A DNA stretch of 64,000 nucleotides from Antedon mediterranea. Lineage: Eukaryota > Animalia > Echinodermata. The stretch lies in the NCBI RefSeq assembly GCF_964355755.1, contig NC_092673.1, positions 25,789,648 to 25,853,647 on the forward strand, in the 5' to 3' direction. A model generated the notes under the pieces. That model was not told the DNA's origin, did not search any database, and saw nothing but the letters and a program-made list of their open reading frames with translations. Each line of letters opens with the position of its first letter. Within the stretch, counting starts at the first letter, position 1. Shown piece after piece: positions 3,862 to 62,470 of the stretch. The translations under genes and the position numbers were made by a program.

Positions 3862-6800
3862 TTACCCTTGTGATGTTGTTGTAGGCATATAGAGTGCAGT
3901 TACGTGGAAATCAACGTCAATGACATAGTGTGTTGTAGTCAATAGAAGTTCCATTGCATAATCATTTAGATCGGCCTTTCTGGTCTTGTTAGTATAATCA
4001 ACTGTCGTAGCGTTTCTTATTAATACTGCGTTTTGATTTCTATGTTTTATCTGCAAGAAAAAAGTTATGTTATTACATTTATTTAATGTTAAGTAGCTGT
4101 GCTGTTACTAAATGCATATTTTGTGAATTATGTAATTTGTGTAAATCACTCACGCGCGCCCAAACATGATTAACAAAAATATGGGTTTAATCAGGTAGCT
4201 GATGTGTTTGTGTTTTTAAGTGTTAATTGACCAAATAGAACTAGTAAATAGTTCCATGTCCGGTTTTTGACATATTTGCGAGTGAGAGTAATAACTATTA
4301 TGAAGCGAGGGAAAAAAATCAGTAATATTCGATTTGTTTATTTAAAACAGGGATGAGTGACACTTCCCTGTTTAGATTTTTAAAAAGACCGAAAATGTGG
4401 AAAATGCTGTTTTGATAGAGGTGGAATGAATCGCATAGAAGCGTGACGGAGCTATGTATGTAGGCCTACTGGTGTAACAAGAAAATAAGTAAGTAGGTCT
4501 AAAACGACAATTTAACAATCAAATTGTACTTACAATATTTGACATTTTATCACTGATGGTCGTCATCAAATCAGATACTTCCTGAAATTCATTGCTGAAG
4601 TTTCTTAGAGATTGGCTATATAATCGGGCTTCGTTCACCTTTACTTCTTGAAAGACAGTGCGGTATATACCGAGATCAGTTACGTATGTTAATAACAAGT
4701 CCACTTCCTGACGATTAAAAAAATATAGTAAATCAAACTGAACGGAATATATTTCATCAGTGTGGCATATGTTTATTAAGCACGTAATAGAGTAAGATTG
4801 TTCATCGTAATAATCAACCTTACAAGGTAAGAGGGACTAACATAAGAAAAATGCCTACAAAATGATCTAATCTTTGTTACACCTGCTGGTTTCTACGAAA
4901 TTCATTGACGGTGAATATAAGGACTGAATTCAGTATATGATATAATACGACGAACTATAAAGGGTCTATAGTTCGGTATTGTACTAATGTGTGAATTGTT
5001 CCATGGTTAAATACTACAGAGAACAGTCATTGTTGATCGACGTAAAGCGTTAATCAAGTGGAAACTATTCTTTGTGAATTCCTATAGTGCCATATGAATT
5101 ACATGTTATATAGTATTATAACGATTGTTATGGATCACCGGTGTCCGGATAAAAATCCCGCAGGCAGGATCCAGGACATCCGGTCCCGTCCCTTTATGTC
5201 TATCCTGTTGTCAGCCATAGTAGGACTGAAGCTCTGTCTACACCTCTGTCTAAACTATCAAACTAGTTTGACAAAAATGTGTGATGTGCCGAAATATGGT
5301 AGTGATATGACATCATCATGTCATTTGTTGTCACATAAAGTTTGATATGTACGTAGACAAGGAACAAGCAAATTATGTGAATAAAGCTCTGTCTACACTA
5401 TCAAACAAAAAGTTTGATGTACCCATATATGGTAGTGCTATGCTTAAATATGGTAGTGATATGACATCATCATGTCCATATATGGGCACATCACATTTTT
5501 TTGACACATAAAGTTTGATAGTGTAGACAGAGCTTTATGGATAGTATTATTTCAGTACTAATACTAACCCTTGCATTACGGGCGTCTTCAAACGCAAGAT
5601 GAGGTACAGTAATGTTAATGTCGTTGGTGTTGAAGTGTCGTCTACGGAAACGTGTCCGATTCTGTAAAAAAAAACAAGCTAATAAGTAAAAAATATTACA
5701 CTGAATAACATTAAAAGCATCATATCAGATACAATACTAATTTTAAAAAATACACCATGCTAGACATACACCTGAGTTTGTTTATAATATTTAAAAAATA
5801 GTGTGTACTAATTATTAAAACAATTTTCAGAATAAAAGTCCTTATATCATATTAAAATGAAAGTGATAGTAGGCCTAAGTTAAGTAAACACGTTAGTTAT
5901 TTTTATTGTAAGAATATTATACAACAAACAGAACAATAGTATGAATAGGAAAAACATCCTAAAGAACATTTACGTCATTAGTTACCGTAATCGTTTTGAT
6001 TGTAGAAGAATTCTAATAATGCGTCGGTAGGCCTATAGTTTATCAATCGTTGTCTTTTTAGGAGTATGATAATAAGGATAAGAATGATGATGGTAACCAT
6101 GAATGATGAGATGATGATGGGATGTTGTTGGTGATGTTACTGGTGATGTTACTGGTGAGTGGGAGGGTGATAAGATAGTAACATTGAGAATTAAATGTTA
6201 GAGATTGAGATGAGGATGGTAATATTGATGCGGATTTTGTTGATGAGTTTAAATCATAATGATAATGATATTGATGGTGATAGTGGTGTTACTGGTGACG
6301 AGGAGGATAATAAGATGGTTACATTGCGAATGTTAAAGATAGAGATGGGGATGATAATGTTATTGAGATAGAACATTCACTAACTGTGAATTGATTATAA
6401 TTGTGGAAAATCACTTACGTATTCGTTAACAAATGCACTGCAAGACCTCTGTAATTCCGTGATTTTCTCAATAAGAGATGTGTGATGTATTGTCCCTGCT
6501 AATGACACAGACGTTTTGAAGCAGACCAGTATAAACAATGATCCTGAAAGATCAACGTAAAATGATTATTATCTTTTTTAATTTCAATTCACACTCGGAG
6601 AGCCCATCACTTACTAATTGGAATACATAGCAATACGAGACAACATGACAAGAGCAAAACACAATGTGAACTTTGTTGTAATAATTTGTTTGTAACTTTC
6701 AGCTATGGGTTACCCTCATGGTATCGTGTTTGAGTATCGATTAAAGCAAACAAATAAACCAACTTAAAATATTTCTTAATTTTGGATTTATTTAAAGATA

Positions 6801-7729
6801 AACTATGACAGAAAATATCAATATAATGCATGAAATATTAATTAAATAATCTCGGAAGTCTACAAATAAATTTACTGTACACATCCGTTTGGAGGTATCA
6901 CTTATGCCTACTTAAATGTTGCTTACTGCACGTATAAACAAAACCTATCACACATGGCGTGCTTATTCACTCTTCCCTGGCTTATTTACCGATAAACATA
7001 ATGACCGATTTTTCATGTAGTACCGGTATAAAAATAGATAACATGCTACTTTATTTAATGTCACAATTTTCTACATTTACTATCATGAAAAGTCGGACAA
7101 CTGTAATGTTATGGCTAAATTAGTATATTAAATATAAAAAAACTCGTAATAGTTCACTACATTTGTTTGGCCATGTAATTATTGTTTATTTGCATTATTA
7201 TTATGTATTATGAAATATTGCTTTAATTTAGAAATAATTACCAATTTATACAGTTTTTAATTGATTAAAATAAATCATTGCGTGCCACAGAAAGTGTAAA
7301 TGGGTCATGTTTACAAATGAAATACCCTTATAGGCATATACCATTGCAAATAAAAAATTCGGATACATCTTAATATTTCGTATCGTTAATTTTCATGAGC
7401 TGTGATAGTGAGAGAACAGTTGTAGTAAGGAGACAAGAAACTGCACGTGCTGTCTATGTATCTAGACATAATACCGTACGGGAATCGGGTATTCGAAAAA
7501 GTATACATGCCTCAGTAAAATACATCACGCATGCAACCGAATAGGCGTTGCAGTAAAATCAACCAAACAATTGTACTGCAGTAAAAATAATACGTTGCTA
7601 AGAAGCGTTGCAGTAAAAATACATTATCCAACATCTTGAAAACAACGATAAAATTGCCGTCAATTTATCGTATATAATTATCTTAAGTAAATTAAAAAAT
7701 AACTTACCAAATATATTAATAACCATCAT
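3862..7729 (-). CDS. Secreted 200-aa protein, candidate long-chain four-helix (IL-6/CNTF/LIF-like) cytokine, gene A. Exons 7729-7708, 6543-6419, 5661-5569, 4707-4534, 4050-3862
   Basis: All four introns are GT-AG with phases 1,0,0,0 and the spliced frame is open: MMVINIFGSLFILVCFKTSVSLAGTIHHTSLIEKITELQRSCSAFVNEYNRTRFRRRHFNTNDINITVPHLAFEDARNAREVDLLLTYVTDLGIYRTVFQEVKVNEARLYSQSLRNFSNEFQEVSDLMTTISDKMSNIIKHRNQNAVLIRNATTVDYTNKTRKADLNDYAMELLLTTTHYVIDVDFHVTALYMPTTTSQG*. Hydrophobic signal peptide, 5 N-glycosylation sequons. The gene model is read from sequence; the family is inference. Confidence 0.8.
5385..5534. mobile_element. MITE family A copy in intron 3 of gene A (second degenerate copy at 5230-5360)
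   Basis: Complete TIRs AGCTCTGTCTACACTATCAAAC...GTTTGATAGTGTAGACAGAGCT. Confidence 0.8.
6060..6370. repeat. Degenerate (GAT/GGT)n low-complexity tract in intron 2 of gene A
   Basis: Repeated GATGAT, GGTGAT and GTTACTGGTGA units. Confidence 0.7.
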
Positions 7730-8734
7730 TATAGCAATATACAGCTTTAAATGTAAAGAATCGAAATGATTGGTAAGTCGGTGAGTAAATTTTTGCTTGT
7801 TGGTCCTATTAACAATTTTAGTTTATTTATGTTGATGAAAAACTCAGAAATGATGGATGCATTGGTTTAAACTGTTGCTTTTATTTGTTTTTAAGAGGAT
7901 TTACAATTGAATACTATTGTAAATTATTATTAGAAATCTTTGTCAAAGCCGGACCGACGTGACGCAAAATCTATTTTTGGGTTTAAGGATTCGTGAAGGA
8001 AAAGGGTTGACCTTTAACGAATTTTGTTGCTATCTAAAAGCACAATAATATCAATTGTTTTGTTATTTTTAAGTTTCATTTTTTATAAGTTTTCCAAGAA
8101 AATTTTTAAGAGTTGGGCTTACTTGATTTTTTTTTGTTTTTTGTAGTGCCTTATTCATTAACTTGTTTCATTTTTTAGATTGAGGTTTAAACCGTGGGAG
8201 TAAGGGACAAAACCAATAAAACACAATTTTAAATTATTACAAATGTTGTTTTATTTTATTTGTTATTACAATTTTGAATAACATTAGGACTAATTAATTG
8301 GTAGTAATAAAAGTATATGTTTAATGTGCAGAGCTTTCAACAAAATTCCCGTGATGTACGTATGACGAGGCCCTTTCATGTATAGCTTAAGTGGGTGATG
8401 CCTTAAGTGAAATAAGGAGGCAAAGATTATCACTCGTATAATACTCCTGTGAGCCGTTACTTTTATTGGATGGCTATATTATTGCTATGGGTATTTTAAT
8501 TAGTAAGCGTACAGTCTTACCGGTTTTTCAATTATTCAAGTATTATATTTTGAATCATGTAGGTCTTTCAAAGTTATTTCCCGTGGTTTACATGCACTTT
8601 ATATTAGGTCTACAATTTCATTATAAGTATAAGTTGGTTATACATCATGTTACCCATCTAACAGGTTGCAGAATTATAAGTATATTTTGAAAATATGTTT
8701 TCCATGGTTTACGTACTTTATGATGAGTGTGTGA

Positions 8735-10151: not shown

Positions 10152-10444
10152 AGATGTATTGTCCCCCAAAAACATAACAAAAATAAAGATTAATAAAATT
10201 AGACTTTAAATATGCTATTTTTGCATTTTATAGAGCAGAGGAATGAAAGTTTTCCTTATAAAAAGAAAGCATAAATTCTTCAATGTAACCAATTATTGTC
10301 TGACAGAAAATTTACTATATTTTGCTTTGAATTACGTTGATTTAGGTAAATGTTTTTCTCTTATGTGTCATTAAAATGACATATTCAACATACACACTTA
10401 AAAAAGGTATTTTTTTCGAGAGGTGGAGGGGTGACAGTATATCT
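10152..10444. mobile_element. Kolobok-like MITE (TTAA target, AG...CT ends)
   Basis: TTAA|AGATGTATTGTCCCCC...GGGGTGACAGTATATCT|TTAA. A second copy at 21717-22018 is nested in a pogo-like MITE. Confidence 0.6.
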
Positions 10445-13400
10445 TTAAAATTTAAAATTGTCATTTACATAGATATATTATTGTACTTCCTGTTCATTTT
10501 TAAATACAGTATTGTTATTGTTTTGTTTATTATATCAATATTCCAGTTATTAATCGGCAACAATAATACAGAAGTGTCGGGAATTAAACGTCAGGCAAAA
10601 ACCACAACTAAGCTTACGATGCATGTTACGGCGTGTTACCTGATGGAAAAAACCCCACCCTTCAAAGTGACAAATTGAAGGAAGATTCCTTGGAACTAAA
10701 CGATCTTAGTGTTACATACGCCCACTAAATAATCAATCTTCTGGTATCAAAATAAACTCTTCCTTAAACACACAAAAATAACAACGAAATATGAAATAAG
10801 TGTTCCTTCTAGAACAGTGTAAATTATTTTTTTATAAAAGGAAAAAAAACGTTTTATCGATGTTAATATTATTACAATCAAAATAGGCATAGATCAGCAT
10901 AAATTATATTCAATGAGGTAAATTGTCATTTACATAGATATATTATTGTACTTCCTGTTCATTTTTAAATACAGTATTGTTATTGTTTTGTTTATTATAT
11001 CAATATTCCAGTTATTAATCGACAACAATAATACAGAAGTGTCGGGAATTAAACGTCAGGCAAAAACCAAAACTAAGCTTACGATGCATGTTACGGCGTG
11101 TTACCTGATGGAAAAATTCCCACCCTTCAAAGTGACAAATTGAAGGAAGATTCGTGTTACATACGCCCACTAAATAATCAATCTTCTGGTATCAAAATAA
11201 ACTCTTCTTTAAACATACAAAAATAACAACGAAATATGAAATAAGTGTTCCTTCTAGAACAGTGTAAATTATTTTTTTATAAAAGGAAAAAAAACGTTTT
11301 ATCGATGTTAATATTATTACAATCAAAATAGGCATAGATCAGCATAAATTATATTCAATGAGGGCGATCTATCTATCTATCTATCTATATCTATCTATTT
11401 TCTCTTTTCTAATCTGATCAATATGATATTGTTTGCGTGGTTACGGAAATGAAATAATTGAAGACTACTTAATCCCAGAAAAGTAAGGGAAAATAAAATA
11501 TGTTCAGGTATTTCTAGAGGAATGTACTCTATATATTTGCTAGTTTTAAGGATTTCCGCTTAATAAATATCATAATGTTATACAATTTTCCTTTCATATT
11601 GTATACAATGTAATTTTTAATTAAGCCAACGAAATGCTTGCTGTGTCATCTTAAGAGAAAATGTTAAACAGTTTTACTTCACCTCATGCATAATTAGGAG
11701 GATGTGGAAGTCCCATCCTCTAACTTTACAAAATAGAAAATCCGATGGGTTGATCCCTTCAATATTAAGAAGACAATTTCTTCCATTTGCTAAGGCTCTG
11801 TCTACACTATCAAACTTTATGTGACAAACAAATGTGACGTGCCCATATGCGGACATGATGATGTCATATCACTACCATATTTAAGCATATCACTACCATA
11901 TTTAAGAACATCACACTTTTTTGTCAAAGTAGTTTGATAGTGTAGTTTAAATATTTTAATTGTTTTTTTAAGCCTGAAAGACAATATATTTTAATTAAAT
12001 TTTTTTAAATGTAATATGGTTCCATGAATAGTCAAATTAATTCTTAAATACGAAAAAACACAATTAATAACTGAAAAAAATTGTATTAACACGCTTGATA
12101 AAAATTAATGTATGGAATTTAACGAATTACAACAAATAGAAATGTGTTAATTTATCTTCGCGGGATATTGACTTCGCGGTAATTGACGACCTCATCAATA
12201 ATTTTTATTATATATTCATTATGTCCTTTGATTTCCTTTTGTGCTTCTACAGTACACACATTTCTTAATTGAAGAAAATATATAAAATAATACCTAATGG
12301 CCCATCGACAGTTTATTTATAATTATCTTTGAAATAGTTTTAATGATGTTTTGTTTGTCAAAGAGCTTAACGTTGGAAAATATATGTAATGCATAATGGT
12401 GTTTAGAGCAGAGGAATGAAAGTTTTCCTTATAAAAAGAAAGCATAAACTCTTCAATGTAACCAATTATTGTCTGACAGAAAATTTACTATATTTTGCTT
12501 TGAATTACATTGTTTTGGGTAAATTTTTTTCTCTTATGTGTCATTAAAATGACATATTCAACATACACACTTAAAAAAGGTATTTTTTCGAGAGGAGGAG
12601 GGGGGACAGTATATCTTTAAAATTTAAAATTGTCATTTACATAGATATATTATTGTACTTCCTGTTCATTTTTAAATACAGTATTGTTATTGTTTTGTTT
12701 ATTATATCAATATTCCAGTTATTATTCGGCAACAATAATACAGAAGTGGGGAATTAAACGTCAAGCAAAAACCACAACTAAGCTTACGATGCATGTTACG
12801 GCGTGTTAACTGATGAAAAAACCCCACCCTTCAAAGTGACAAATTGAAAGAAGATTCCTTGGAACTAAACGATCTTAGTGTTACATACACCCACTAAATA
12901 ATCAATCTTCTGGTATCAAAATAAACTCTTCCTTAAACACACAAAAATAACAACGAAGTATGAAATAAGTGTTCCTTCTAGAACACTGTAAAATATTTTT
13001 TTATAAAAGGAAAAAAAAACGTTTTATCGATGTTAATATTATTACAATCAAAATAGGCATAGATCAGCATAAATTATATTCGATTAGGGCGATCTGTCTA
13101 TCTATCTATCTCTATCTATCTATTTTCACTTTTCTAATCTGATCAATATGATATTGTTTGCGTGGTTACGGAAATGAAATAATTGAAGACTACTATACTT
13201 AATCCCAGAAAAAGTAAAGGAAAATAAAATATGTTCAGGTATGTCTAGAGGAATGTACGGTACTCTATATGTTTGCTAGTTTTAAGGATTTCCGCTTAAT
13301 AAATATCATAATGTTATACAATTTTCCTTTCATATTGTATACAATGTAATTTTTAATTAAGCCAACGAAATGTTTGCTGTGTCATCTTAAGAGAAAATGT

Positions 13401-14237
13401 GAAACAGTTTTACTTCACCTCATGCATAATTAGGAGGATGTGGAAGTCCCATCCTCTAACTTTACAAAATAGAAAATCCGATGGGTTGATCCCTTCAATA
13501 TTAAGAAGACAATTTCTTCTATTTGTTAAGGCTCTGTCTACACTATCAAACTTTATGTGACAAACAAATGTGACGTGCCCATATGCGGACATGATGATGT
13601 CATATCACTACTATATTTAAGCATATCACTACCATATTTAAGCATATCACTACCATATTTAAGAACATCACACTTTTTTGTCAAAGTAGTTTGATAGTGT
13701 AGTTTAACTATTTTAATTGTTTTTTTAAGCCTGAAAGACAATATATTTTAATTTAATTTTTTTAATGTAATATGTTTCCATGAATAGTCAAATTAATTCT
13801 TAAATACGAAAAAACACAATTAATAACTGAAAAAAATGGTATTAACACGCTTGATAAAAATTAATGTAGATGGAGTTTAACGAATTACTACAAATAGAAA
13901 TGTGTTAATTTATCCCGGACCCCCCCCCCCCCTCACTCTATTCGAGAAGAGGGAGGGACATATTCAAAGCGGGTAAATACGGCGTTTGACTTCGCGGGAT
14001 ATTGACTTCGCGGTAATTGACGACCTCATCAATAATTTTTATTATATATTCATTATGTCCTTTGATTTCCTTTTGTGCTTCTACAGTACACACATTTCTT
14101 AATTGAAGAAAATATATAAAATAATACCTAATGGCCCATCGACAGTTTATTTATAATTATCTTTGAAATAGTTTTAATGATGTTTTGTTTGTCAAAGAGC
14201 TTAACGTTGGAAAATATATGTAATGCATAATGGTGTT
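10231..14237. repeat. Recent tandem duplication (10231-12403 and 12404-14237) containing a ~460-bp block present three times
   Basis: Both units start TAGAGCAGAGGAATGAAAG and end GCATAATGGTGTT. The block occurs at 10455-10918, 10920-11363 and 12626-13089. Confidence 0.9.
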
Positions 14238-15649
14238 TTACCAAACCGATTGAGTGTGAATGCTACGAGGTTTTACGTATCGAAACAATTTCTTTACAAA
14301 AACCATGGATGCAATGTGTTTATGAATATTTCACAATCATAACTGAGATGACAGATGAGAAAAACATACACAGGCTATTCTACATGACCACGTGTCTGGG
14401 TTTTCAATCAATCATCTATGAGAGTGATCCGGGGGTACGGTATCACCAACCTCACCCTAAATTTCACTCAAACTCCATCTATGTGTCCTTCTCATAGGTG
14501 CTCAGCAAAAACGTGGTGTTGATAACTGCAGTTAGGCATTCTTGTTTTCGACGTACTTCTCGGAATAACCAAACAAATAGCCTAGCACACAACCAAAATG
14601 TTTCATTTTCTTATTCATTTTATTGTTAAAATATATTTTTTTCATCTAAATTTTCTTATCAAAATAGCAAATATAATATATGAACTCATCATGAGCAAGA
14701 TACAAAAAATTAAGTTACGCATACGTTCCTGACTATAATGCTTGGTTCCCACTTTAGACGCAATGCAAGGACGTAAACGCACGTAAGTAACGCGCACGAT
14801 TCGACCAATCACAAGAGATGAATTTATTGGTCAACTCGCTTGCGTTGCGTCTACGTCATTGCGCTGCGTCTAGTTGGAACCACGCTTAAATAAGCTTATT
14901 ATAATAAATATTGGTAGTAGACGTTATATTAAATATACTATTAATAAATACTTGTAATAGATAAATCTCAAGGTATCTAAAATAATCTATTATACATATA
15001 GATTCAGCTGCATGTATTGTCTTCGTTATTAGTAATCATAAGCGATTGTCTACATAAATATATAATTGCACGATATATAAATAAACCCTAACTACACAAG
15101 CGAGATCGAAATAAGAGGCGTAATGAAGAAATGGATTAAATGTAAAACTGGTTTGCTGGCTAATTTATATTTGCAACGCTTATTTTTACGGTTATGGAAA
15201 TAAAAGAGTAAAGTAGATTTTTTTTTTTCATTCGTCAATGACGAATAATTGATTGTACTTCATAGCAAATTTGGAACGAAAATACTGTTGCTAAATTAGG
15301 GCTACTACAATTGAGTATATCTAATTTGACTCTATATGTTCCTCATGTCTCGTCTTATTAATTTAAAAAAGGTTAGCTACCCCCTTGAAACTAATTCTTG
15401 TAGGCATAGGTTTTACCAGACCGGTTGATAAATACTAATAGAATAGTGCTAATTGGTGAAATGCCAGACCAACAGATTTTGAATACACCCATTTCTCACA
15501 CACATTTTGTTCAAAGTAATACCAGAAACATTAAGCATTATTTTAGCACACATACAATTAAATAAAGTCAAGTTATACACATCTACACAATTGATTTTGT
15601 GACCGTACATAACTTGTCTCACAAAAATGATTACAAACACTACTAGCGA

Positions 15650-18044
15650 CTAAATGTTCATTTGTATCTCGATTCTCCTTATAGCTAAAACGGCTGTAGG
15701 AAGTATCTTCACGCGACATGCAGATACCTCCAATCGGCCAATAACGTCTCCCCATCCGTCATTTGTACATACATGTGGATCATAACGAAAGGTTGTGGCA
15801 TTCATTATCTAAAATTATAAAATACATATGAAATTGTTAATTTGACGAAACTTTTAAAACACATTGTAGCATCGAAATGATGGGATTTGTGGAAAAAACA
15901 TATAGAGCACGCATGTTCTCTTGCACTGTACATAATTTTAATGTAAAACAGGAAATAGCCTATGCCTAATTTTTATAGGGATGTCAGAGGATGACAAATA
16001 ATAATACTGTACTGTACTAGGAAATTAATAATAATAATATCAAACATTCATAAACCGCTCTTTACCGGAATCTCACATCGCAATATGAAAGGTTTTAAGG
16101 AGAGATTTGAATTTGAATTGAAATGTAAAAATGCTAAATTCCACTTACATTTCTGGCTTCGGTTATCGCATCAACAGTCTTGTTTACTATAATTCCAATG
16201 AACGCAAACTGCTCATCTGAGGTGACGTTATTTTTTACATGAGACTCGTAAAGAGACGTAAATAGGCAATGGTAATTCTCCAACGAATACAGCATATCTT
16301 TTAAAATTTCCACCTGCAAAAATAACTTAGCTAAATTATTATTTATAAGAATTACTGTACGGTTGTGTCTCGAATACGAAACATTCAAATAAGCCCTGCT
16401 TAACTATCGTAAAACCTAAAAAAAAAGAAGCACCCCTTTCTTTTCGAAAAGACTCCCCTGTTTGGTTTGCAAAAGTAATCTCGAAAAGAAGCCCTTTTCA
16501 AAATAAAGATACTGTAGATAGGCTTCTCTTAATGCCAGATGCAGAATAATAATGTATGATCGTATTTATATCGTACATTTTTTGTTGGTGTTTTGATCTA
16601 CTTCGTTGGCTAAAAAAAATTATTTACAGGGAATTTCTCAAAACCATATTATTGTATTAGCAATTCACAAGATGAGGATGCACATTGGTTTTATTTTGGG
16701 ATGCGAGAAAAATTGACATCAAACAGCCCTCTTATTTTTTTTATTATTATTTTTATTTAAAAATAAGTAGGTTAAATACCGTATTGTTTTTTCCAAGGAG
16801 AGAAATATATAGACTGGGAAAATGAATAGTGCACACATTTGCAGCTGCAGAAATTGAATCCTGTGAATAAATGTATAGAAAACAGTTAATACAGCTATTA
16901 TTACAGTTCAATTATTATCAACGTGATATTTGGTGTAAAACTTAGGGGATATAATATGAGACAATAATGATAACGGTGTATTATTAATCAATTGTTTTAA
17001 GTGTGATCCATCAAATAAAGATATGAGATGTGATTGGAAGATAGTGAATGAATGATATTTTTAAAAGACGGAAGCCCAGATCAGTGATATCACTGAGGCC
17101 TTCCACTGGGGCTCCTGTACTAATAATATGTACTTATCTCAAATTTAACAAAGACTAATAAAGTTGAAGAAGCCTAAAGCAAAACCTTATTCATCAATCA
17201 TGTTAACAATTTCAATTACTTATAACATTTATCAATACTAGATATTTGGCACTTTACATTTAAAAAATTCAGCAGGATAGTTAATTAAAGATATAATACG
17301 GTTGAAGAGAATTTTTGTAATAAATGTGTTGAGAGGTGACCTCATTGTTCACACTGCCTTTTAATATAATAATAAAGTAAACTTACCTTTAATTCAAGCG
17401 TATCTTCTATAACTTTACACAGATTTGCGATTGGTTCAAAAAGTGGCGTCAAATTGACTTCAGTATCCCATGCTGGTGCGATTGGTTCAAAAAGTGATGT
17501 CAAATTGACTTCAGTAACCCATGCTGGTGTAGCCACCACCGTTGTCGCAGGTAGTGTAGTCGGCGCTCCGACTGCAAATGTCATCACGTACCCAATCAAT
17601 AATATTACTAAAATTATTGAGAACATTTCAAATTATAATTTGACAATTTTGTTTAGAATCATAAACTGCTAAAGATTACCAGTTTATTTTGATTTTACAA
17701 TTGATTGACAAATTGATTCATGTTCGTTTAAAATTATTATCAAATCGCCGCATATTTTCATAGCTTTAGGCCTAGGGTCAACTCATTTGTTAGTTAACCT
17801 GATGATCCGACCCACTTAATAAAATTCTGATTTTCTCCTCACACAACATAATAAACAAAACCAATCCAACAATCCATCACGACAGAAAGCACATTCATCT
17901 AACACGAATGAAATAAATTCAAAACATTTATGAAACCTTAAGTTTTACTAATAAATCAACAAAACAATTAGTGTAACTATTGAGAAGTATATCAGTAAAA
18001 ATAAATAATTGTATCCACTCACCGTAAGATGTATAAGAAGCCAT
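15650..18044 (-). CDS. Secreted 215-aa protein, candidate long-chain four-helix cytokine, gene B. Exons 18044-18023, 17607-17387, 16860-16780, 16313-16149, 15808-15650
   Basis: All introns GT-AG, phases 1,0,0,0, first coding exon 22 nt as in gene A. Spliced product: MASYTSYVILLIGYVMTFAVGAPTTLPATTVVATPAWVTEVNLTSLFEPIAPAWDTEVNLTPLFEPIANLCKVIEDTLELKDSISAAANVCTIHFPSLYISLLGKNNTVEILKDMLYSLENYHCLFTSLYESHVKNNVTSDEQFAFIGIIVNKTVDAITEARNIMNATTFRYDPHVCTNDGWGDVIGRLEVSACRVKILPTAVLAIRRIEIQMNI*. Signal peptide ending near AVG-AP, 5 Cys, several sequons. Confidence 0.75.
17426..17527 (-). repeat. In-frame 51-bp tandem duplication in exon 2 of gene B
   Basis: Units 17426-17476 and 17477-17527 encode PAW(V/D)TEVNLT(S/P)LFEPIA twice. 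Confidence 0.95.
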
Positions 18045-18180: not shown

Positions 18181-18213
18181 ATTTATAGACATGGGAGGAT
18201 GGCCGCCGGAAGT
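18181..18213 (-). promoter_or_regulatory. Putative core promoter of gene B: TATA box and ETS motif
   Basis: TATAAAT on the minus strand at 18187-18181, about 137 bp upstream of the ATG. CCGGAAGT at 18206-18213. Confidence 0.5.
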
Positions 18214-20824: not shown

Positions 20825-23800
20825 ATGGTTGTTTTGAAGAATATACCGTCTATTATTTCTCCTGAACTTTTGTACGCTTTGGCCCAAATGGGCCATGGAG
20901 ATGAAATAGGTTAGTACAGAAACATTCTTCAGTACTGAAATAATAACATATATTAACATATTATGTGATAATATACCCCTTTTTCACTTACAAATAGGCC
21001 GCTGTAGCCTACTACCGGTTTAGCTTACCTAAACTACACCACCACTGCTGAGTCTACTGTGTGTACTAGGCCTACTCTACTACTGTACTAGCTAGCTAGC
21101 TCAGCTAGGCAGAGTAAGCCGCTAGCTACTTTACTATACAGTAGTAGTAGAAAATACCCTACCTGAATGTGGTCAGTCACGATTTTTCAATAATTAATAT
21201 TAATAAAAGCAATATGAAAATGAATTTTCTAAAATCACATGAAAAATAAATTAAAAGCATGACTTTCAGAAAAGTATATAAATGTTGCTGGTTGTTCTTG
21301 ACAATTAGTAATAATAATACTTATTATATAGTAGTCAGTCAGCACCGATTAACACGTAATAATTTAATATTAAATACTTTTCATAAGTAGATCCTTGATG
21401 AGATTTTAGACCTATAACTGACCTTGAATAGCACTGGTGATTGGTACTAAAAAGTAATTGTTTTAATAAAACTTTATGTCATTCAGTAGCCTACTGTTAT
21501 ACGTAAATTACCTTACTTAATTTGAATGACAGTGTGAATAAACTAGGACAGGTTAAACCAAAACTAACGGAGCAGACAGACAAAATATTGCCGAAATGCT
21601 GGTAGCTATCGACCCATTAATACAATCTGAATGATCAATCACATTGCATATAAATTGATTGCAGTAGAGATTGCAATGAAATGATACCTTTGGGACCCAA
21701 CAAAGTGTCCCCTTGAAGATGTATTGTCCCCCAAAAACATGAAAAGTGAAGATTAATTAAATCAGACTTTGAATAGCTTATTTTGTAGTTTTAATAAAGT
21801 TAATCACTTGCGTAGAAAAAAAAACCGAAAAAATTGATTTTTCACTAATACAATAATTTTCAAAAATAAATGGTTCAACCAAACATCATTAGCTTTCAGC
21901 CAATTTGACTATTTTTGCTTTAAATTACAGTTTTTGGTCACTATTATGATATCAAATTGGCATATTCGACAAAAAAATGTAAAAAAATATTCTGTCAGGG
22001 GGACAATACAGTACATCTTTAATAGCGGTTGACCATTAAGGTGCTAATATTTCTCCTCGTTTGTTTTACAGGAACGTGTCCCCTGTTATGAGGTGTTTTT
22101 ATTCCTAGTTGGTTACAAGAACGTTAGTTGATCATACCCAGTAATGTATTGATCACGCTATCATTAGAAAAGATTTTTGGACAAAACATTTTTTCCAAGG
22201 CAATATCTGTGTATTTATTCCTTTAAAATGTTATACCCTGATATTATATATTGATTATTATTGTTTTATTATCTGTCTTATTAAAAATAAAAACAAAAAC
22301 ATACTCTAAATCTGAAATACATTCAGATCTACAGTAGATCTAGAGGTCGACGGTGACATACGTGTCACTACACTTTGAGAAAGCCAACTGATAGTTTGGC
22401 GAAACGTCAGGTAAATAAAATAATCGTTTTTTACCATTATTACTATTATGGTTGAGATATAATTAACTATTATATTTTATCTGAAATACATTCAATTTTA
22501 CACATTTTTAGAAGTTATTTTAATAATTATTTTGAAAGATCGAGGTACCATGTTTCGAGGAATTCCCATCTGGAAAAAATGTTAATAACTTTAATTAGCC
22601 TTTACCATGCTTGTATTGAGTAATATAGTTAAAGTGTACGTCAATACTACACTTGTGGTTTCTAAAGGGTGGTTGCTAATCTAATTTGGAAATACATAAA
22701 TCTAAGGAAATGATATTTGGAAGCAATTGAAAAAGCCCTTCCGCCTCTTTCCTTCCCGGAATTGATAATAAATCTATACCATCGTGTAATTAAAATTATT
22801 TAATTTGATTTAATTAATTTTTTCTATAAAGCATAATTGTAGTTACATTACATTATAAAGTAAATGTATAATTAGATTTGACAGTAACCATCATTCAAAA
22901 TATCAATTAGTATAACATAGTATAATATTTATAGTAATAATAATATTAAATAATATAATAGCATAATAATACAATACGAAATTCCCTTATTGTCCAAGAA
23001 AATGAAAATTACTATATGGCTCATGACTACCACAGAAAAATACTTAAATTATCAGTTATATTTATAAATTATAGTTTAGTTATTCATGTCTTTTTAATTT
23101 TTAATATGTTCTGTTTTGTTTCTTGGACCGCACCGCATATTGTGAGTGCCACTGATTCAAAGGTATGGTAAAAAAATATATAAATAAATATCCTAACTTT
23201 AAGTATTTTAAATTATAGTCGGTCATCCCAGCTGTGCAGGAAGAGGTTTAATGCATTTTGGTCCTCCGCATATAGTATGCCTTTCTATCCATAATTTCAT
23301 ATTTAAAGACTATCTTATACCATATTTAAGTGTAGTACAGTTATAGAAACTTTTTCAATGACGACATCAAGTGACCAAACGTTGCGTTCATGATGTCAGT
23401 CTGATGCTTGTAGATCATTCATCTTTGTAATGTAATGTGACATTTATATAGCGCTATTTCATGAAGATCAGAGCGCTGTGGACTTAGATGTTACACCTTT
23501 TCAACAACATTCTTCTCCCCTAAGGGTCACATCGTGTCATCAGCAGCCAACTGCGATATTAAATGTCCATTTGCATCAAACCAAGAACCAATTGTTTTTA
23601 ACTCATTGTTTATAGTATCTGCGAAGACTTGTTCTACCACCAGAACCATGGAGCGAGTGAGCCTTGAACCCTGGCTATGGATTACGGTTCTACTGTCTTA
23701 ACCACTCGGCTGTGACTCACTCATCCTCGAGTCTTTGTGCGTGGACCCAACTATGCAATAATCTGCGTAATGGCATTAACAATTTCAGTAGTCAGTTGAA

Positions 23801-29800: not shown

Positions 29801-32800
29801 TTTAGACAAGATACTTTACTTATGTTTGCCTCTCTCCACCCAGGTGTATAAATGGGTACCTGGTTAGATAAAGACACAACTTTGTGCTGATCTAGCTGCA
29901 TTATTATGAGAGTATATTTCCATACGTGTTTGATTAAAAAAAAGAATGACTGGGGTAATAATGTTCAGTGCTTAGAGGTTTCACAACATTAGGCGCTATA
30001 TAAATCTATGATATTATTATTATACTACATACTGAGCAAGTACATTTTGCATGTCAAAATGCACTCCATACAGTATATCATTATTTCTTTGCTGGACACA
30101 CTGCTTATTGAATTAAGGGTATGTGGCACAGTGTGTTTCTTTGTCAAGAGACTTGCCTCTTTCCGCCCAGTTGTATATGGGTACCCAGTAGGGTCTAAAA
30201 TCACAATTGCACTGATTACTAGCTGCATACTGTATTTATGAGAGCAGTTCCTACATGTTTGATCCAATGACCGAGGGAATTATTAATATGAAGTGCTTAA
30301 AAGCTTTGAGCATTAAGCGTTATATAAGATTGATATTAAATCCCCATCTGTACTGTAGGTAGTATGATTCCAGGCTAGTGATATGTATATTGTTGCTATG
30401 TTTTCAATCATAACAATTTTCCTTTTTAAAAATAAATCACAAACAATAGTATGATTATTTAATGCTATTGTATTGCTGGGAGGTGAGGTGGTCCAGAAGG
30501 CTATTCTCTTGTTGTAAATAGTACACAAATCACACCCCTTATCAAAATATTTTGAAATTTGATAGTTCTGTGTTTTGGTGATGAATAACAAAAGAATCAC
30601 AATTTTAACATTCAAGAGGAACTAAATCACGGAATTTCCAAATCAAACGCACATTCTTATATTTTCAAAGATATTTTGTTGGGTGTTACATCAGGCGTAT
30701 AATTTGTCAATAGTATGACCAGGTTGATATTTCATTTGCACCTTCAGGGGCTTTTTAACAAAAGATTGGTACATGACTCATACTACTATCAAACCCTGGT
30801 AGACAGAAAGAACGCTCTCTTTATTCCCTTCTTTTACACCTATAGTTTTGGCTGATGCAAACTTTCCTTCAAGTTCAATATGCAAATCAGGACCAATCCT
30901 TATACGTGCAGACGGTAAGAGGTATCTTGTTTTTTTTTCTATTTTTAGCAAATTTTGTGTCTTCATGTTGACATCATATTTCAAATTATCCATGCCATTC
31001 GATTGGTTGATTACATATCATGCATTATTTGAATACATCCCGATTGGAAGTTAATTTTTTTGTTAGAAATATTTGTTTACAAAGCTAATATAGGATTATG
31101 AATTTTTTTAATAATGTAAAGTGCGCCATCTACAATATAACAGCTATTCGCTGCCAAATAATGAATGCCATATTTATTTATGAGTCTTCAACATTCGATT
31201 CAAGATGGAAGCAGTGGTGGCGCCAGAATGTGCCTCCGCCGGAGGTCGAAGGGGTGGCATGTTTGCCAAGCATCCATTTGCTGGATTATAATTAGACATT
31301 CTCCTCTTAATCCATAAGGCATGGATTATATTACACCACATTGTATGAGCAATGCTGTAGCTTTGTTTAGTTCTTAAATTTGAATTTAAAACATTTTTTT
31401 TTAATAGGCAATGATATTCCAGGCCTTCTGAAGGCAATTTTGACACTTCTACCATTAGACACCTATGTCGATCAACCTGTAAGTGTGATCTTGTGCATTT
31501 GATCATATATTAAACTATTTTAATTTCACGACATGCCACTAGACTACCACATTTAGTAGTAATCAATCACAGTCCTACCATATAAGTGGTAATCCCCCAC
31601 ACACATATATTTCTGAGAATTATGTTTTGATGCAATAGCTACAGTATAGCCTTGTAGTTATTCTTGACATTCGAAAATTGTTACTGTAGCATTAGGTAGA
31701 CTTGTAATGGAATAAAGTAAAGTAAACAATATCAATTTGTACCGTAAATTTTAAAATGTATTAAATTATTCTGAGCGGCCAAACCTAATTTAATTTTAAC
31801 TACTGCTGCTTTTTCAATTATCTAAATTTGCAGAAATATCATACCCTGAAATAGTATAGCAATTTTTTGTTAGTACCCATGAGAGTACTTATGTACTTAA
31901 AATGGTTTGTTGAGCTTAAGATTTATACCATAAAAAACTAAATATTGATCTTATTTTAGGTGAATTCTAACTCGGTCAAGCTCTTTCTACACTATCAAAC
32001 TAGTTTTTAAAAAGAAGTGTGATGTGCCCAAATATGGTAGTGATGTGCCCAAATATGTATACCTTTATAATAAAAAAACAGCATTTAAAACATAAGAATA
32101 AGTAACAAATATACGTTTTATTTTTAATGGGATCATTTCAATTAGGCCTGGATTGAAACAAAAAAAAAATGATTTCTAGTTAATCTTATAAAGTAACATA
32201 TATGTGTTCATAAACTAATATTCATTACTTAAATTACTATTAAAAACAATTTTTTTTTTATATAATAATAAATATAACATATATCCGGTAGTAAATAGTT
32301 AATTATCAGTCTATTAGTATTTTAGGAAAAGCTATAAATACGCATTTTTACAAGCTTATAGATATTGAACAAATATAATAAGTGTTTGTTTATGAGTCTA
32401 TTATTTGTATTAAAATTCCCTAATTTTTCAGGAAAAGTACACATACACACTTACTGTTTGTGTGTAGGATGTTAATGATTATTCTGTTTAAACTCTGGAT
32501 AATATTTTGTTATAGTATAAATGTACACATCTATTCTGTTTGTTTGGAAGTATATTGTAGTATTGGTGGATGTTAGGAAGTTTAAATTTAATTTAGTATA
32601 CTGGCAGGGCAGATCAAGGATTTTCTTTTAATATGAAAAGCTAAGATAATAGATATAAAAAAAAGTAGTGCATAATGTCATTTTAGCTGTCAAAGGGGTA
32701 TGCGCATGACACAAACGCTACCCCTTTGCAGGGGTTATTCACCAACCTTCAGTTTGGGATGGTAAATGAAGGTAGGTTGTAACAGGTTTGGAAATGTCTC

Positions 32801-35800
32801 CTTCGTCTACAGTTCCAAAACGAAACAGTATGTCATACTTTGCATTGTGATAAGGTGAAAAAGTTAAAGAAAAGAAAATAAACTGTAAATGTATGCAAAA
32901 AAAAGATACAATAGAAATTACCAAATGTGTCAATCCTCCATACTGTGACAGTTTATTGAAATTGGAACAAAATCAGGGACAAATTTGAAGAAAAGAAAAC
33001 TTTCAGTTGATTAAATCCAGTGACTCATTCATATCTATAAATGTATTTAACTATACAACAGGAACAATATAAGTGTGTCAAGCCTGTATTTCGATTGTTT
33101 GCAGGTTTTTAGGAAGTGTGTGTAGGTAAAAGGAAAACATAATATAAATATTTTGATTAAGCACTGTTCTGTCAGACGCAGTTAGTCAATTAGATTCTTG
33201 GAATACGATTAGGTGTAAGGGACTATTGGTATACTCCTACGCCAGTCATTGAACCCATTGTATTTTGTATATTAAGAAAATAGAATATAAGCTTCATGTG
33301 GAAAAAACTTATTCAATTACTAATTTAACCTTTAAAATTAGTGTGAATAATAGTAAATACCTGTACTATCACTCTATCATGACACTTCCGGGCTGGGTGG
33401 TATCAGGTCCACCCCCTTGATCAATGGACCAGATGCCTGCATGAGTTGACCTTGTTATTTATTATGACAATGCAATATTACTATTTAATGAAATGGGTAA
33501 ATAAAAAAAAAGAATTGGTATATTGGCATATACTGTAGGTACTGCTGATAAAGTATCATATTTGAGTGACCTCTGTATTAACAACTATAATATGTTGATT
33601 CCTATTAAAAGTTATGAAATATGTTTTACCAGGAAGAGTTAAATTTATTTCACTCTTCACTGGTTTTACATCCCATACATTGCATTTGTTACTGCTGGAA
33701 AAGTTCTGGAAATTGACTACAAAGGCATTATAAGTTATATCAATTTGTGTTTTTACAATATAGTAAAACCCGTCCTTTGGAACACCCCTATGCAAGAGAC
33801 ACCACAAAAGGAACAATTTCCCATGAGGAGCAAAATACTTTTTAATTTAGAGGACACTACACTCTATAAAGAAATATTTGGGTCCTGAGGGTATCCCCAT
33901 AATAGTTGTTCTAATGTACATTACCACAGTAACCATTCCTAACTCAATCCTATAGTTTGCCCTGATGGGATCAAATATATCTGAATCCAACCAATCTAGA
34001 TGCTGTTCCTCTTCATATGTTTGAGTATGGTAGCCAGAATTTAGATTGTACGAAGATAATGTTTCTTTGAAATGTTTACACTGGTAAATTACTTTATGTT
34101 TGATCAAGGATATAGACAAATACTATTCATTAATTCACAAGTACAGTAGTTAACCAGTAAAATCCCTATGTTATGAATGATATTTCTGTAGCGCTTTAAA
34201 AGGGAACTTATTTTAGAACACTCTTTCTGCTTTACCACCCATGACGAATAAAGTGGAGTTTATAGTTATTATCAATTGTGTAGCAAAGCTTTATATTTAT
34301 ATTTTATAATAAGCAAGAACCTTTTAATACCTAGAGTCACCCTTTAATAAATGTACATTTTAGACATACCCTTCTTTTTGGGCATCTCTACTCAAGGAAC
34401 ATTCCTAGTAAGGTCGTTAATAATAAGGATTCTACTGTTCATTATCATAGGTATTGTTCTTTTTATTGTCATCAAAAAGACGTGGCAATTATCATAAGGG
34501 CGTGTGGCGCAGTTTGTTGGACGTTGGTTTAATGATCGTGAAGTCATGGGTTCAAATCCAACACTGATTATTAGCTGCATTAATGGGAATATGTTTACAT
34601 ACATTTTTGATGCCAAAAATTGAATAAAATGGGTTAATGTCTAATAACATTATGCACTTTATATAACTCCAGGATATTATTATGAAATAAAATGAACACA
34701 ATCTTCATATTTTAATTTCAGGCAGTGGTGATGCAGTTAGTGGATAGTGATGCTCAGCGACAGTTAAAAACCCCTGTTTGGGAAATATATAAAGAAATGT
34801 TAACAGAGGCAGAAGGTAGACAGGTAATAATAATATCAACTTTTCCCTGTTTACTGTGATAAGGAATGTCACATGAAATTAAGATTATAATATCCAGTAG
34901 TTTCTATGAAGGGATGGATGAGTCATGCACCTTTGTAGTGCATGCATAATATTATACTGTCCTCCTCTTCTTCTCATGTGTCAGTGCTTCCTCTCTCCCA
35001 TATGCCTCGCCTGTATCCCCGGGTATTACACGTACCTCACATCATTCACTACCTCCTGCCTCGCATATGGTAGTGCCTTATCTCTTGCATAAGGAATACC
35101 TTCTCCCTTACATATGGAATGCTTCTCCTTACATATGGATTGCCCACTACAATGATAAGTAGGCACATTCTTCAGTGGGAGATGGAACACTTGACCTGAT
35201 TTTAAGTACAGTATTGTAATAGCGGAAATTTAATCTGTTTATTGACCACTGATCAATAAAAACAATTTATTTCTGATGACTTTACCACAAAATGAGACAT
35301 TGTTTTTAATGTGACCTTCAGTTTACTATGTAATAATTGTTTATATAGTAGTAGGGGGAAAAAAGATATCATTTTAGAACAATGTGTGATTTTTAGTTGT
35401 TTATTTATTAACAAATATTAATAAATGTTCCTGTTTTCTGTTCTGTATTTCTAATCTTGAAATGTTTGTATTTCTTCTAGATAATAATTCAGATTATTAG
35501 AAAATGCAGTAGGGTCTATAAACCCACCCCTTGTTGCACTTTCCCATAATAAACATTAATATATAATCTTTAAAACACCATAATATTCAGAATGAAAATG
35601 TCTTACTATTTATACACAAAATAAATTCAATAGTGAATCAGTAGTGTCTAATTTCAATTAATTGTTTTGATTTGTATTTTTCTATTTCTAGATAGAATTG
35701 AGAAAGGTTGAACGATTCAAGTTTTATGATCGAGCACGAACAGCTTTTGCTGTTGTAGCAACAGGGTATTTAGAATTTTCTCAAAAAGTATTTTCTATTT

Positions 35801-36078
35801 AATTTATTTAATAATTAACATTGTTATTATATTTGTTGTCATTAACTTGAATAGTACTTTATCAAATAATAGTAATAGTTGCAGGGGCTACACTTGATTA
35901 GCTAATTGCAATTTCCTAATCAAATATTATTATTATGTACAATGAAATTTATTTTACTATTCTCCATATTGTCTTTAGTTTTTTTTAATTTAATTTTTGG
36001 TTTTTGTTTAATTTCAGAGAAAAGGCTTTGTATGGTAATCTGATTTTGAAGAAAGGTGTCATATCCTCTTCACAATGA
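20825..36078 (+). CDS. FUOM: Fucose mutarotase (RbsD/FucU family), 153 aa. Exons 20825-20909, 30846-30914, 31408-31478, 34722-34823, 35692-35765, 36018-36078
   Basis: Spliced ORF MVVLKNIPSIISPELLYALAQMGHGDEIVLADANFPSSSICKSGPILIRADGNDIPGLLKAILTLLPLDTYVDQPAVVMQLVDSD...[39 protein letters not shown]. Diagnostic MGHGDEIVLADANFP and [10 protein letters not shown] motifs; all introns GT-AG and in frame. Confidence 0.95.
22373..22411 (+). ncRNA. Candidate minimal hammerhead ribozyme variant of the Penelope-retroelement type
   Basis: TTGAGAAA core, stem II GCCAA...TTGGC, then GAAACGTC and AGG, followed by AATAAA. Confidence 0.45.
26745..27110 (+). mobile_element. Degenerate L2-like LINE 3' fragment
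   Basis: Frameshifted translation LPVKEHIQYK...KCLCGTAPHYL...APEIWDQLP...LKTHLF, followed by AGCGCTTTATAAAT and an (ATT)n tail. Confidence 0.7.
29605..30022 (+). mobile_element. tRNA-SINE family D copy interrupted by a family A MITE (29665-29801, TTA duplication)
   Basis: B-box-like GGTTTGAGTCC, core CTCTCCACCCAGGTGTATAAATGGGTACC and tail AGCGCTATATAAAT-(ATT)n. An uninterrupted site is at 47053-47245. Confidence 0.7.
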
Positions 36079-38659
36079 AATCAAATCTACTATCAGTATT
36101 ATGGGGTACTAAAATTCCATTCTACATTACATTTATTTCTCAACAATATACAACATAATTTTATTTACTGAAGAAAAGCATTAATTGTGGGCCAAAACAA
36201 AAAAAGAAAGATTATACTGTAAGAACAGAAGAAAATAATAACGAATAAAAATAAAATGTTTATTTTACTTGTACAACAATGGTAAAATGTTGTCTCTAAA
36301 AAAGACTATATAGTACATATACTGTTTGTTCGATAAATGTTAGTTTAATAATCTGATGAGAGACAATCATACTATATAAATATAAAATATGAAATTGTTT
36401 AAAGCAGAAATTGTTGTACCTAATCTTATTTTCACATTTAAATTTCTTTGAATTAAAACTTGCTTAATTATGGTCAACATAATTTAGTATTAAGATTTAA
36501 AATCCTAAATTGATGACATAATTTATTTTAAATTAGTGAATCTAAAAAGAAAAATAGTTAATCTAAATTCTAAAATTGTTTATTTTTAGTTTAGTTATAT
36601 GTAAACTTAAATTAATTATATAACTTATGTTAAAATCTGATTTCCAAATACTTTAGGTGCTAATGTCACCATGAGTTTAATTTATACAAGTATAAAATAT
36701 ATATATTAAATTATAAAAAAATGATGATTATAAAAATATTTATAATAAAATGTAAATCGGAATATACAATAATGTAGTTGTGAAATTTATAACTCTATAG
36801 TCATGTCTCAACCATAGCATTAAAACAAACATTTAAAAGGCATTGATTCACACAGTAGAACTTATTTGGGACTTATTAGTAAGGCTACACTTTCATATGA
36901 AACAAATGGACAATATATGTTTTAACATGACAGCCAATATACGTTTTAACATGAAGGCAGGAGATACCTTATTAAGGAACACTCTATTGAATCGCAAAAG
37001 TGTCGCCATATATGGGTTCTGCTGTAGTTAAAAGTTTTAGCACCAAACTACCTTGATATTGACTTATAATGTTTTTTTATAAATGTTATCATTGATCACA
37101 AAAAAGAGGAAATTGATGCATGCACATGATTTAACCAGCTGGTCTATGGGTGTCACCATGAAAGTAATGGTATCAGAAACAAAAAATGATATAAACCAAA
37201 AAAAGTTATGTGGTGTTACCATAATTCAAAGGAACAGGCACGCAGAGTGAGGTATTGTTATTCAATTCAAAGAACATTATAAGCGTCCAAAAGACAAAAA
37301 GTAACAAAAACAACAATGGCAAGAGATAATTAAGAAAATGGACGAAGGCAGATCCCAGAAAGATGAGAATCTTGTGACAGGATTGACTTCACAAATTAAT
37401 TAAAAATAGAAAATTATAAAAAAAATAAATAATTTGTTAAAAATGAAATTTAAAAAATATAATAACACCGGTGGATAAAAGTTTGAAAAAATAACGTAAA
37501 AATGATGAGCAGAAAAAAGTACAGCTGCAGGGCATAGTAATGAATATGATGACAAAATAAATACTGTAATTCAATCTTTACAGAACTACCATGGGACACC
37601 AGGGAGGAGATGCTGCTATACACAATGAAGAAGACATGTCATGGGTGTCAAAAGAACACTCTTTTTAAAGAATATATAAACTCTAAATGTTATTTATTGA
37701 TCATTGATCAACTGAAACAGAATAATAATAATCATCCAGAGAAATGTTTTCATACAACTAAAAAATATGGAATTTTCGCCAATGAGCTATGCTCGACGCG
37801 ATTATGAGATCATGTTCCGAATATGAGCATTTTTTCTATAATTTGACAGTATGATTTATATATAATAATCATAGTTGTTTATGAGCCACACTCATAAATT
37901 GTACATTGTTGCATTTATGATTTTAAGGCCACACATAGTTTTTATCTTTAGGGCGATGACTTTTAAAGCTGTAATATAATTTTATAATCATTATTTTACA
38001 GAACATCCTTTTCATTTTTATTTGTTTCATAAATTTCAAAAAGAAAAACCCACACACCAAATATGGACATTTTTATATGAAAGAAGAAACTTATCCTGAA
38101 TTCCTCATAGTGCAGACCACTGATCATTTTTTAAATATAATATTACATGATAATGTACTAAAATACCTTTCAAACAGGAAAAATAAATAGATATTAATAG
38201 TAATACAATATATTTAAATAGATGCCACAGACCAAGGTTATCAAACCACATTTGATAGCCCAATACAAACCAATTTTAAGGACATCCTTCTATGGGAAAA
38301 CCTGTGATTCCACCCTTCTTCTGGTTTCAAGGCGATGGAGAACCAGACATAATTCATTATGTTATTCATAATCATAAATATAAATCATATATCATTTTTC
38401 ATCAATCATGTGTAAAGTGGCGTAACGTGAGGCCCCTGGTTTAAGAACCCTAAATCCTCGGGCGTTTTTGGCCTTTTTCGACATTATTAATGCCTGTTTT
38501 TTCCTCTGGTCACTGCTCATGGGCCCGTGAAAATTATTATATCATGTATAATGTTTAAGGTATAATTTATTATGTGTAATGTTAAATGTATAATATATTA
38601 GTTTAACTCAGTTAGTGAAGGATCTGGACCAACAGGTGGTAAACACCTCTAAAACGGTC

Positions 38660-61929: not shown

Positions 61930-62470
61930 TTAATCTAAACTAGTTATCAGCTAAACTTAACATCCATTAAACTAAACTAGAAATTGTGTAAACTGAATTA
62001 ATAGTAATCACCTAAACTAGTATTAATAAACTAAAAGTACTGTATTTTCAACTTAGAAACTAGTTATCAACTAAACAAACCTAGTTAAATCAACTAAACT
62101 AAAATAGTAATTAACGAAACTGAATTAGTAACATAAACTAAACTAGACTACTAATCAATTAAACTAGTAATGAACTAAACTAGACATCAACTAAACTAAA
62201 TTAGTAATCAACTAAACTAGTATTAGTAATAAACTAAACAAACCTAGTTAAATCAACTAAACTAAATAGAACGAAACTGAATTAGTATTGTAATATAAAC
62301 TAAACTAGTAGTACTAATCAACATTGTAAACTGGTAATCAACTAAACTAAATTAATAATCACCATACACTAAAGTAACAAAACAAAACTAATAATCAAAC
62401 TAAACTACTAGTCAACTAAATTAAACTAGTAATCAATGAAATTAAAACTAGTAATAAACTAAATTAGTTT
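61930..62470. repeat. Degenerate AACTA(A/G)-based minisatellite
   Basis: Repeated CAACTAAACTAAACTAGTAAT-like units over about 540 bp. Confidence 0.8.

Follow-up and report, generated by a model that had tools for sequence, protein, structure and literature searches.

A likely IL-6-like helical cytokine gene next to a second candidate in the crinoid Antedon mediterranea

The product of gene B in the crinoid Antedon mediterranea is likely a long-chain four-helix cytokine that is secreted and glycosylated, and the gene is likely an ancient tandem paralogue of its neighbour, gene A. The probability of this full reading is put at about 0.65. The gene lies in a 64-kb stretch of AT-rich animal DNA, here called the window, in which the genes follow each other in the order gene A (-), gene B (-), a fucose mutarotase-like gene (+), STX18 (-) and VPS51 (+). 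One exon of VPS51 is 100% identical to an Antedon mediterranea RefSeq protein, and residues 4-795 of the VPS51 protein map as 17 stretches exactly onto 50.4-60.5 kb of the window.

Gene model and locus

The gene model of B holds up. Its frame is open for 215 codons, and all four introns are of the GT-AG type. The GC content of every intron is 0.28-0.30, against 0.36-0.43 in the five exons. Table 1 gives the coordinates.

Splice models were trained on 16 introns of VPS51 only, and both strands were scanned for signal-bearing genes with five exons and intron phases 1-0-0-0. The whole window yields two such models, gene B with a sum of 65.4 over its eight sites and gene A with 65.2, and no third gene of this layout. 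Any model at all was found in 12 of 60 Markov sequences of 64 kb, the best scoring 42.7 against 65.4 for B. Since the exon-length windows of the scan were set with both genes known, it tests the reality of the structure and not the identity of a cytokine. The preliminary description had given B the exon and phase layout of A, and this is confirmed: both genes have five exons with phases 1-0-0-0 on the same strand.

The only ATG between the TATA-like box and position 18044 abuts the box, at 18182. Another in-frame ATG, at 17626, is a possible alternative start with an equally hydrophobic leader. The acceptor of exon 2 is the weakest site of the gene, with a score of 0.4 under an unsmoothed matrix and of 5.2 when the tract is pooled. 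An in-frame alternative acceptor at 17571 scores 1.1, and its use would remove the hydrophobic core of the signal.

Two DNA contigs of one run, which may come from the assembly's own sample, show 0 differences at the locus. Run X1 differs at 16309, 16323, 17637 and 17707, with one missense change (exon 4) and small intronic differences; these are single contigs of depth below 5, and possibly errors. The 3' region was considered for AU-rich elements, which are not above background: its first 600 nt hold six ATTTA motifs, and 11% of 71 background windows reach as many.

Table 1. Positions of the genes and of the features of gene B in the window
Feature	Position	Strand	Remarks
Gene A	3862..7726	-	RefSeq XP_071948875.1; five exons (next row); predicted to encode a long-chain four-helix cytokine
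Gene A exons	7726-7708, 6543-6419, 5661-5569, 4707-4534, 4050-3862	-	phases 1-0-0-0
Gene B	15650..18044	-	five exons, phases 1-0-0-0
TATA-like box	18181..18187	-	about 140 nt before start codon
Gene B coding exon 1	18023..18044	-	22 nt, phase 1; donor score 9.4 (VPS51 range 5.2-12.3)
In-frame ATG	17624..17626	-	just upstream of exon 2 acceptor
Gene B exon 2	17387..17607	-	221 nt, phase 0; hydrophobic signal core, Thr/Pro stretch, 17-aa repeat, predicted helix A; acceptor 5.2
Thr/Pro-rich stretch, residues 22-35	17525..17566	-	13 residues, 8/13 T/P/S
In-frame 51-bp tandem duplication	17426..17527	-	2 x 17 aa; 48/51 bases identical; one N-glycosylation sequon per copy
Cys71	17417..17419	-	predicted helix A, flank of hydrophobic face
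Gene B exon 3	16780..16860	-	81 nt, phase 0; predicted A-B loop, Cys91, Pro-x-Leu motif; donor 5.7, acceptor 7.8
Cys91	16833-16831	-	exon 3, early in predicted A-B loop
Gene B exon 4	16149..16313	-	165 nt, phase 0; predicted helices B and C, Leu-x2-Tyr-x3-Phe (residues 119-126), Cys124
Cys124	16268-16266	-	exon 4, late in predicted helix B
Gene B exon 5	15650..15808	-	159 nt with TAG; predicted C-D loop and helix D, Cys177, Trp182, Cys194, Pro200
Cys177	15769-15767	-	exon 5, end of predicted C-D loop
Trp182	15754-15752	-	exon 5, near predicted start of helix D
Cys194	15718-15716	-	exon 5, twelve residues after Trp182
Pro200	15700-15698	-	exon 5, inside putative helix D
Gene B putative 3' UTR	14823..15649	-	runs to first AATAAA (14828)
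Fucose mutarotase-like gene, spliced	about 30296-36200	+	spliced contigs in run X1
STX18 and VPS51	40000-60550	STX18 -, VPS51 +	head to head, <1 kb between them

The annotation apparently lacks gene B, because exon 4 retrieves no protein: in a database that contains gene A and VPS51, no protein of 98-2000 aa matched and none of 11 candidates scored. Run X1 holds spliced contigs of STX18 and of the fucose mutarotase-like gene (depth 35-140), and its genomic background has a depth of about 4-8. At gene B it has short unspliced pieces of depth 2-4 with no joint, which are evidence neither way.

The DNA around the two genes has features of its own. Young tandem segmental duplications lie between A and B, at 10231-14238 (1.3 kb at 93%, 0.69 kb at 97% and 249 bp at 100%). 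The 3' flanks of A and B share a 66-bp match, which has the look of a dispersed repeat and is not counted as evidence of paralogy. An open stretch at 23527-23697 (-) resembles the remnant of a LINE reverse transcriptase, and 62002-62466 is an AT-rich degenerate tandem array with units of 16-23 bp. A STAT-type palindrome, TTC-N3-GAA, stands at 8081-8100 (-), directly before a TATA-like box and some 360 nt upstream of the start of gene A, where it could serve JAK/STAT feedback. No such palindrome occurs in the 1 kb upstream of gene B.

Microsynteny with TOMM7 is a marker of IL-6 orthologues in PMC13081863. The neighbours seen here are the fucose mutarotase-like gene, STX18 and VPS51; TOMM7 was not seen in the 64-kb window, which covers one flank only. 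In human, STX18, MSX1 and CYTL1 are adjacent, with STX18 two genes from CYTL1, according to a passage of PMC4804413. Gene B is likewise two genes away from STX18. The fold class of CYTL1 is disputed, and a passage of PMC10792014 cites a chemokine-like model. The parallel is a curiosity spotted after the fact.

Gene A and the case for an old duplication

The model of gene A agrees letter for letter with RefSeq XP_071948875.1, a protein annotated only as uncharacterized, and this agreement validates the exon logic used here. A HMMER search of 1.84 billion representatives gives two matches, gene A itself and its Anneissia orthologue XP_033110289.1 (43%). Pfam returns nothing at the cut-off for eight single exons of A and B, for the whole of A or for the Anneissia protein. 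Sequence searches of the PDB with A, with its alignment and with exon 5 of B return nothing meaningful.

Gene A is predicted to have a long-chain four-helix fold like that of IL-6, LIF and IL-27p28. The ESM Atlas groups it with clusters of LIF, IL-6, G-CSF, CNTF and IL-11; clusters of LIF, IL-6, G-CSF, cardiotrophin-2, IL-11 and hormones score 0.91-0.94 against it, LIF-like on top, and the ten best family-bearing matches all belong to one clan. The Atlas model has a pTM of 0.74. In a structure comparison with predicted models on both sides, its best row is an IL-27 alpha (IL-27p28) cluster, with a TM of 0.63/0.66 over 152 residues; the other rows have a TM of 0.44 or less by query.

AlphaFold2, run on two sequences, gives four long helices (21-53, 78-105, 112-139 and 162-190) joined by long A-B and C-D loops, at a pLDDT of 37. 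With this low-confidence model Foldseek finds nothing at E 0.001, and VIA finds generic bundles (best Z 9.8) and no natural cytokine in 50 rows. Such blanks, obtained with a poor model, say nothing against a cytokine fold. Gene A is the stronger IL-6/LIF-like candidate of the two.

Gene B is probably an old tandem duplicate of gene A. This is the best reading, although the sequence evidence is thin. It draws on the adjacency of the genes, their common strand, matching phases, similar exon sizes and equally strong splice sites, on one block of similarity that spans an exon junction, and on 33 identities in 150 aligned residues.

The shared block consists of the A-B loop proline and helix B. The block tests were picked after the alignment had been seen, and should be read in that light. 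Across the junction of exons 3 and 4 (junction 3), where the junction itself slips by one residue, 12 of 5000 shuffles score as well as the ungapped block against the A/Anneissia profile, and a free search for this block falls at the same register (125 of 3000). The three junctions taken jointly are matched by 133 of 5000 shuffles; at junctions 2 and 4 there is no anchored similarity, with 2256 and 2193 of 5000 shuffles as good. A motif in exon 5 has a p of 0.012, and matched exons combined have a p of 0.047, against 0.45 for unmatched ones. The spacing from Pro-x-Leu to the helix B motif is identical in B, A and XP_033110289.1. Exon 3 of B is four residues shorter than that of A.

Whole-protein likeness is not significant. 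Local z values are 0.9-1.1, and global z is 1.8 against A but -0.2 against the Anneissia protein. The HMM score of gene B, -0.4, is at the shuffle mean, 1101 of 2770 scored shuffles reaching it, and hhalign gives probabilities under 1% for A against B. In the alignment of B with the Anneissia protein, 21 of 147 residues are identical.

The preliminary description had called gene B an old paralogue. Layout, position and the junction block speak for it, but ordinary whole-sequence statistics lend it no support. The motifs it had compared in exons 3 and 4 are present, but their likeness is slight (p 0.57 and 0.91 exon by exon), and only the block that spans the junction is significant. A motif pattern that 6 of 20000 shuffles contain was drawn up with B already in view and is not counted as a test.

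No orthologue of gene B was found by the protein search with exon 4 or by the A-seeded HMMER search of the 1.84 billion representatives. Gene A shares the phases of B. It and the Anneissia protein differ from B in having no extension and a single mature Cys each, which is unconserved and differs in place between the two.

Extension, cysteines and helix D

Residues 1-21 or 1-22 of gene B form a signal-like hydrophobic leader; with a hydropathy of about 2, it qualifies as a secretion signal on that measure. The N-terminal extension that follows is for the most part a recent duplication in frame rather than a mucin domain. It had been described as mucin-like and rich in Thr and Pro. A stretch of this kind is present, but it is only 13 residues long, and most of the extension is the 51-bp duplication, which had been missed. 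The second 17-aa copy runs into predicted helix A. The protein has six sequons, two of them from the repeat, a number reached by 43 of 5000 shuffles; the four core sequons are reached by 223 of 5000. The extension would form a flexible glycosylated tail, lately lengthened by the 17-aa duplication.

The fold of gene B is likely long-chain four-helix, judging by the exon layout and by the block of A-B loop and helix B. Predicted helix B is amphipathic (p 0.011); for predicted helix C the p is 0.43. Five Cys stand in the mature region (71, 91, 124, 177 and 194) against one in A, as first described. On the predicted helices, Cys124 is on the face of helix B opposite the hydrophobic moment (160 degrees), and Cys71 and Cys194 are on the flanks of the hydrophobic faces of their helices (81 and 91 degrees).

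A bundle of the up-up-down-down type has its C-D loop alongside helix B, and its A-B loop passes across helix D. For this reason the simplest wiring, placed on the helices of gene A, would be 124-177 plus 91-194, the kinds of pair that had been proposed, with Cys71 free. An intrachain bond between Cys124 and Cys177 is somewhat favoured; one between Cys91 and Cys194 is suggested only tentatively. Other wirings are possible, either 91-177 plus 124-194, or 71-194 plus 124-177, which would free Cys91.

The cytokine reading of gene B is weakest at helix D. The putative helix contains Pro200, has no helical amphipathicity (p 0.97) and shows some beta periodicity. These features suit a gene that descends from the same cytokine gene and whose C-terminal half was remodelled, with a proline-broken or shortened helix D and new disulfides. 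Its product would then be a decoy, an antagonist or a non-cytokine secreted glycoprotein. The likeness to A points the same way, being limited to the block at junction 3 and a single motif in exon 5. Such remodelling is nevertheless unlikely. When exon 5 is folded alone, the low-confidence model (pLDDT 43) has no strands and is helical only from residue 200, over residues 200-212; in the Atlas it has no usable match. In gene A, too, helices B and D, which are buried, lack a clear moment (helix D, p 0.53), and the exon sizes of B still suit four long helices.

An odd number of Cys could also mean a partner chain. The preliminary description had raised the idea of an IL-12-type heterodimer, in which gene B would supply the alpha chain and its odd Cys would be bonded to a soluble receptor-like chain. 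A bond between Cys71 and Cys194 (helices A and D) is possible and would leave Cys91 of the A-B loop free for this, and the best structural neighbour of gene A is itself such an alpha chain, from the family of p35, p19 and IL-27p28. The interchain Cys of the IL-12 and IL-23 alpha chains lies late in the A-B loop. Gene B has no Cys there; Cys91 lies five residues before the loop proline, and no p40/EBI3-like gene was noticed in the window. In both G-CSF and CNTF, the free Cys17 is in helix A. Passages of PMC3130716 and PMC8939829 give G-CSF five Cys with Cys17 free, and CNTF a free Cys17 as well; gene B has five Cys, one of them probably free. An odd Cys thus needs no partner chain, the idea of one finds no support, and a heterodimer is improbable.

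A recently silenced gene or young pseudogene might be expected to be absent from the protein database and seemingly from the annotation, as gene B is. This is very improbable. Although identity to A has fallen to about 22%, nothing in the frame, the splice sites or the start context is broken; the sole visible recent insertion is in frame, and sequons are enriched. At such divergence, an intact frame would imply selection until recently.

It is scarcely credible that gene B is an unrelated secreted protein with the layout of A by coincidence: global similarity of A and B is not significant, and genes for secreted proteins often have a phase-1 intron behind a short first exon, but the genes are adjacent on one strand, four phases match, exon sizes are similar, and the best ungapped block falls in the expected register across the same junction.

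Comparison with known cytokines and significance

The intron phases of vertebrate IL-6-type genes are 1-0-0-0. According to a passage of PMC13081863, IL-6 in vertebrates is encoded by five exons, the signal region being interrupted by one intron and the domain by three, and gene B has this plan. It also resembles IL-6, IL-11 and G-CSF in its length of about 200 aa. It differs from them by the Pro in predicted helix D and by the 17-aa repeat extension, lacks the short-range Cys pairs of IL-6, and has no sequence match to any Pfam cytokine family.

LIF and OSM have a long-range disulfide from the A-B loop to helix D, and the vertebrate genes for LIF, OSM, CT-1 and CNTF have fewer exons. The link of gene A to this group is its top Atlas cluster. 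Proteins of the LIF/OSM/CT-1 type carry FxxK at the start of helix D, as a passage of PMC9601804 states; the motif is absent from A, B and the Anneissia protein. For IL-6, G-CSF and MGF, part of PMC3271213 gives the pattern C-x9-C-x6-G-L-x2-[FY]-x3-L. None of the three proteins has it in full: the tail Leu-x2-[FY]-x3-[FL] is present in all of them, and the C-x9-C half is absent. Gene B lacks both signatures and is not filed as an orthologue of IL-6/G-CSF or of LIF.

By analogy, gene B most likely works like an IL-6-family ligand. The product would be secreted and glycosylated and act as a single chain. It would bind a receptor of the gp130/Domeless type and turn on JAK/STAT, this receptor and pathway being proposals, and its expression would be inducible and low-level. 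The site III hot spot of IL-6 is Trp157 in a passage of PMC7378365. Trp182 of gene B is a candidate for the same role, by position only; gene A has no Trp at the equivalent position.

A disulfide from helix B to the C-D loop is of a kind found in short-chain cytokines. In a bolder reading, crinoids have retained two class I helical cytokines that diverged in ancient times and are both built on the gene plan of vertebrate IL-6. The disulfides of B, one of LIF type from A-B loop to helix D and one from helix B to C-D loop, would be unlike those of the vertebrate long-chain cytokines compared. The locus would be a relic of a deuterostome cluster that predates the split of long and short chains, and would supply the ligands of echinoderm JAK/STAT. 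This larger picture is quite unlikely.

The invertebrate helical ligands of Domeless and JAK/STAT treated in passages of PMC13203501 and PMC8226699 are Drosophila Unpaired (Upd1-3); the crinoid pair, by comparison, has a vertebrate IL-6-type exon layout. Besides insect Upd, the relevant passages of these two papers and of PMC9601804 report no IL-6-family members in invertebrates, and they do report receptor homologues in echinoderms. One passage of PMC8226699 places an IL-6-like molecule reported from a sea star below sequence-similarity thresholds. Structure has been used to trace IL-6 to lampreys and hagfish, in part of a 2026 preprint (PMC13081863), and likewise to trace IL-1 in invertebrates, as a passage of PMC13736523 describes. 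No description of helical cytokine genes from crinoids or other echinoderms was found in a literature search outside which subscription journals largely lay.

Gene A also has a score of 0.92 with unnamed Atlas clusters in which cnidarians, arthropods and molluscs predominate. Invertebrate helical cytokines may be widespread yet unrecognised.

Judged by the searches made, gene B is likely an IL-6-like type of cytokine in a phylum without described members. Gene A carries most of the significance, and gene B adds a seemingly unannotated gene with unusual cysteines. Together, with the exon plan of IL-6, the two are testable candidates for JAK/STAT ligands in a regeneration model. If they are two deeply diverged paralogues, the diversification of these ligands is old in the crinoid lineage.
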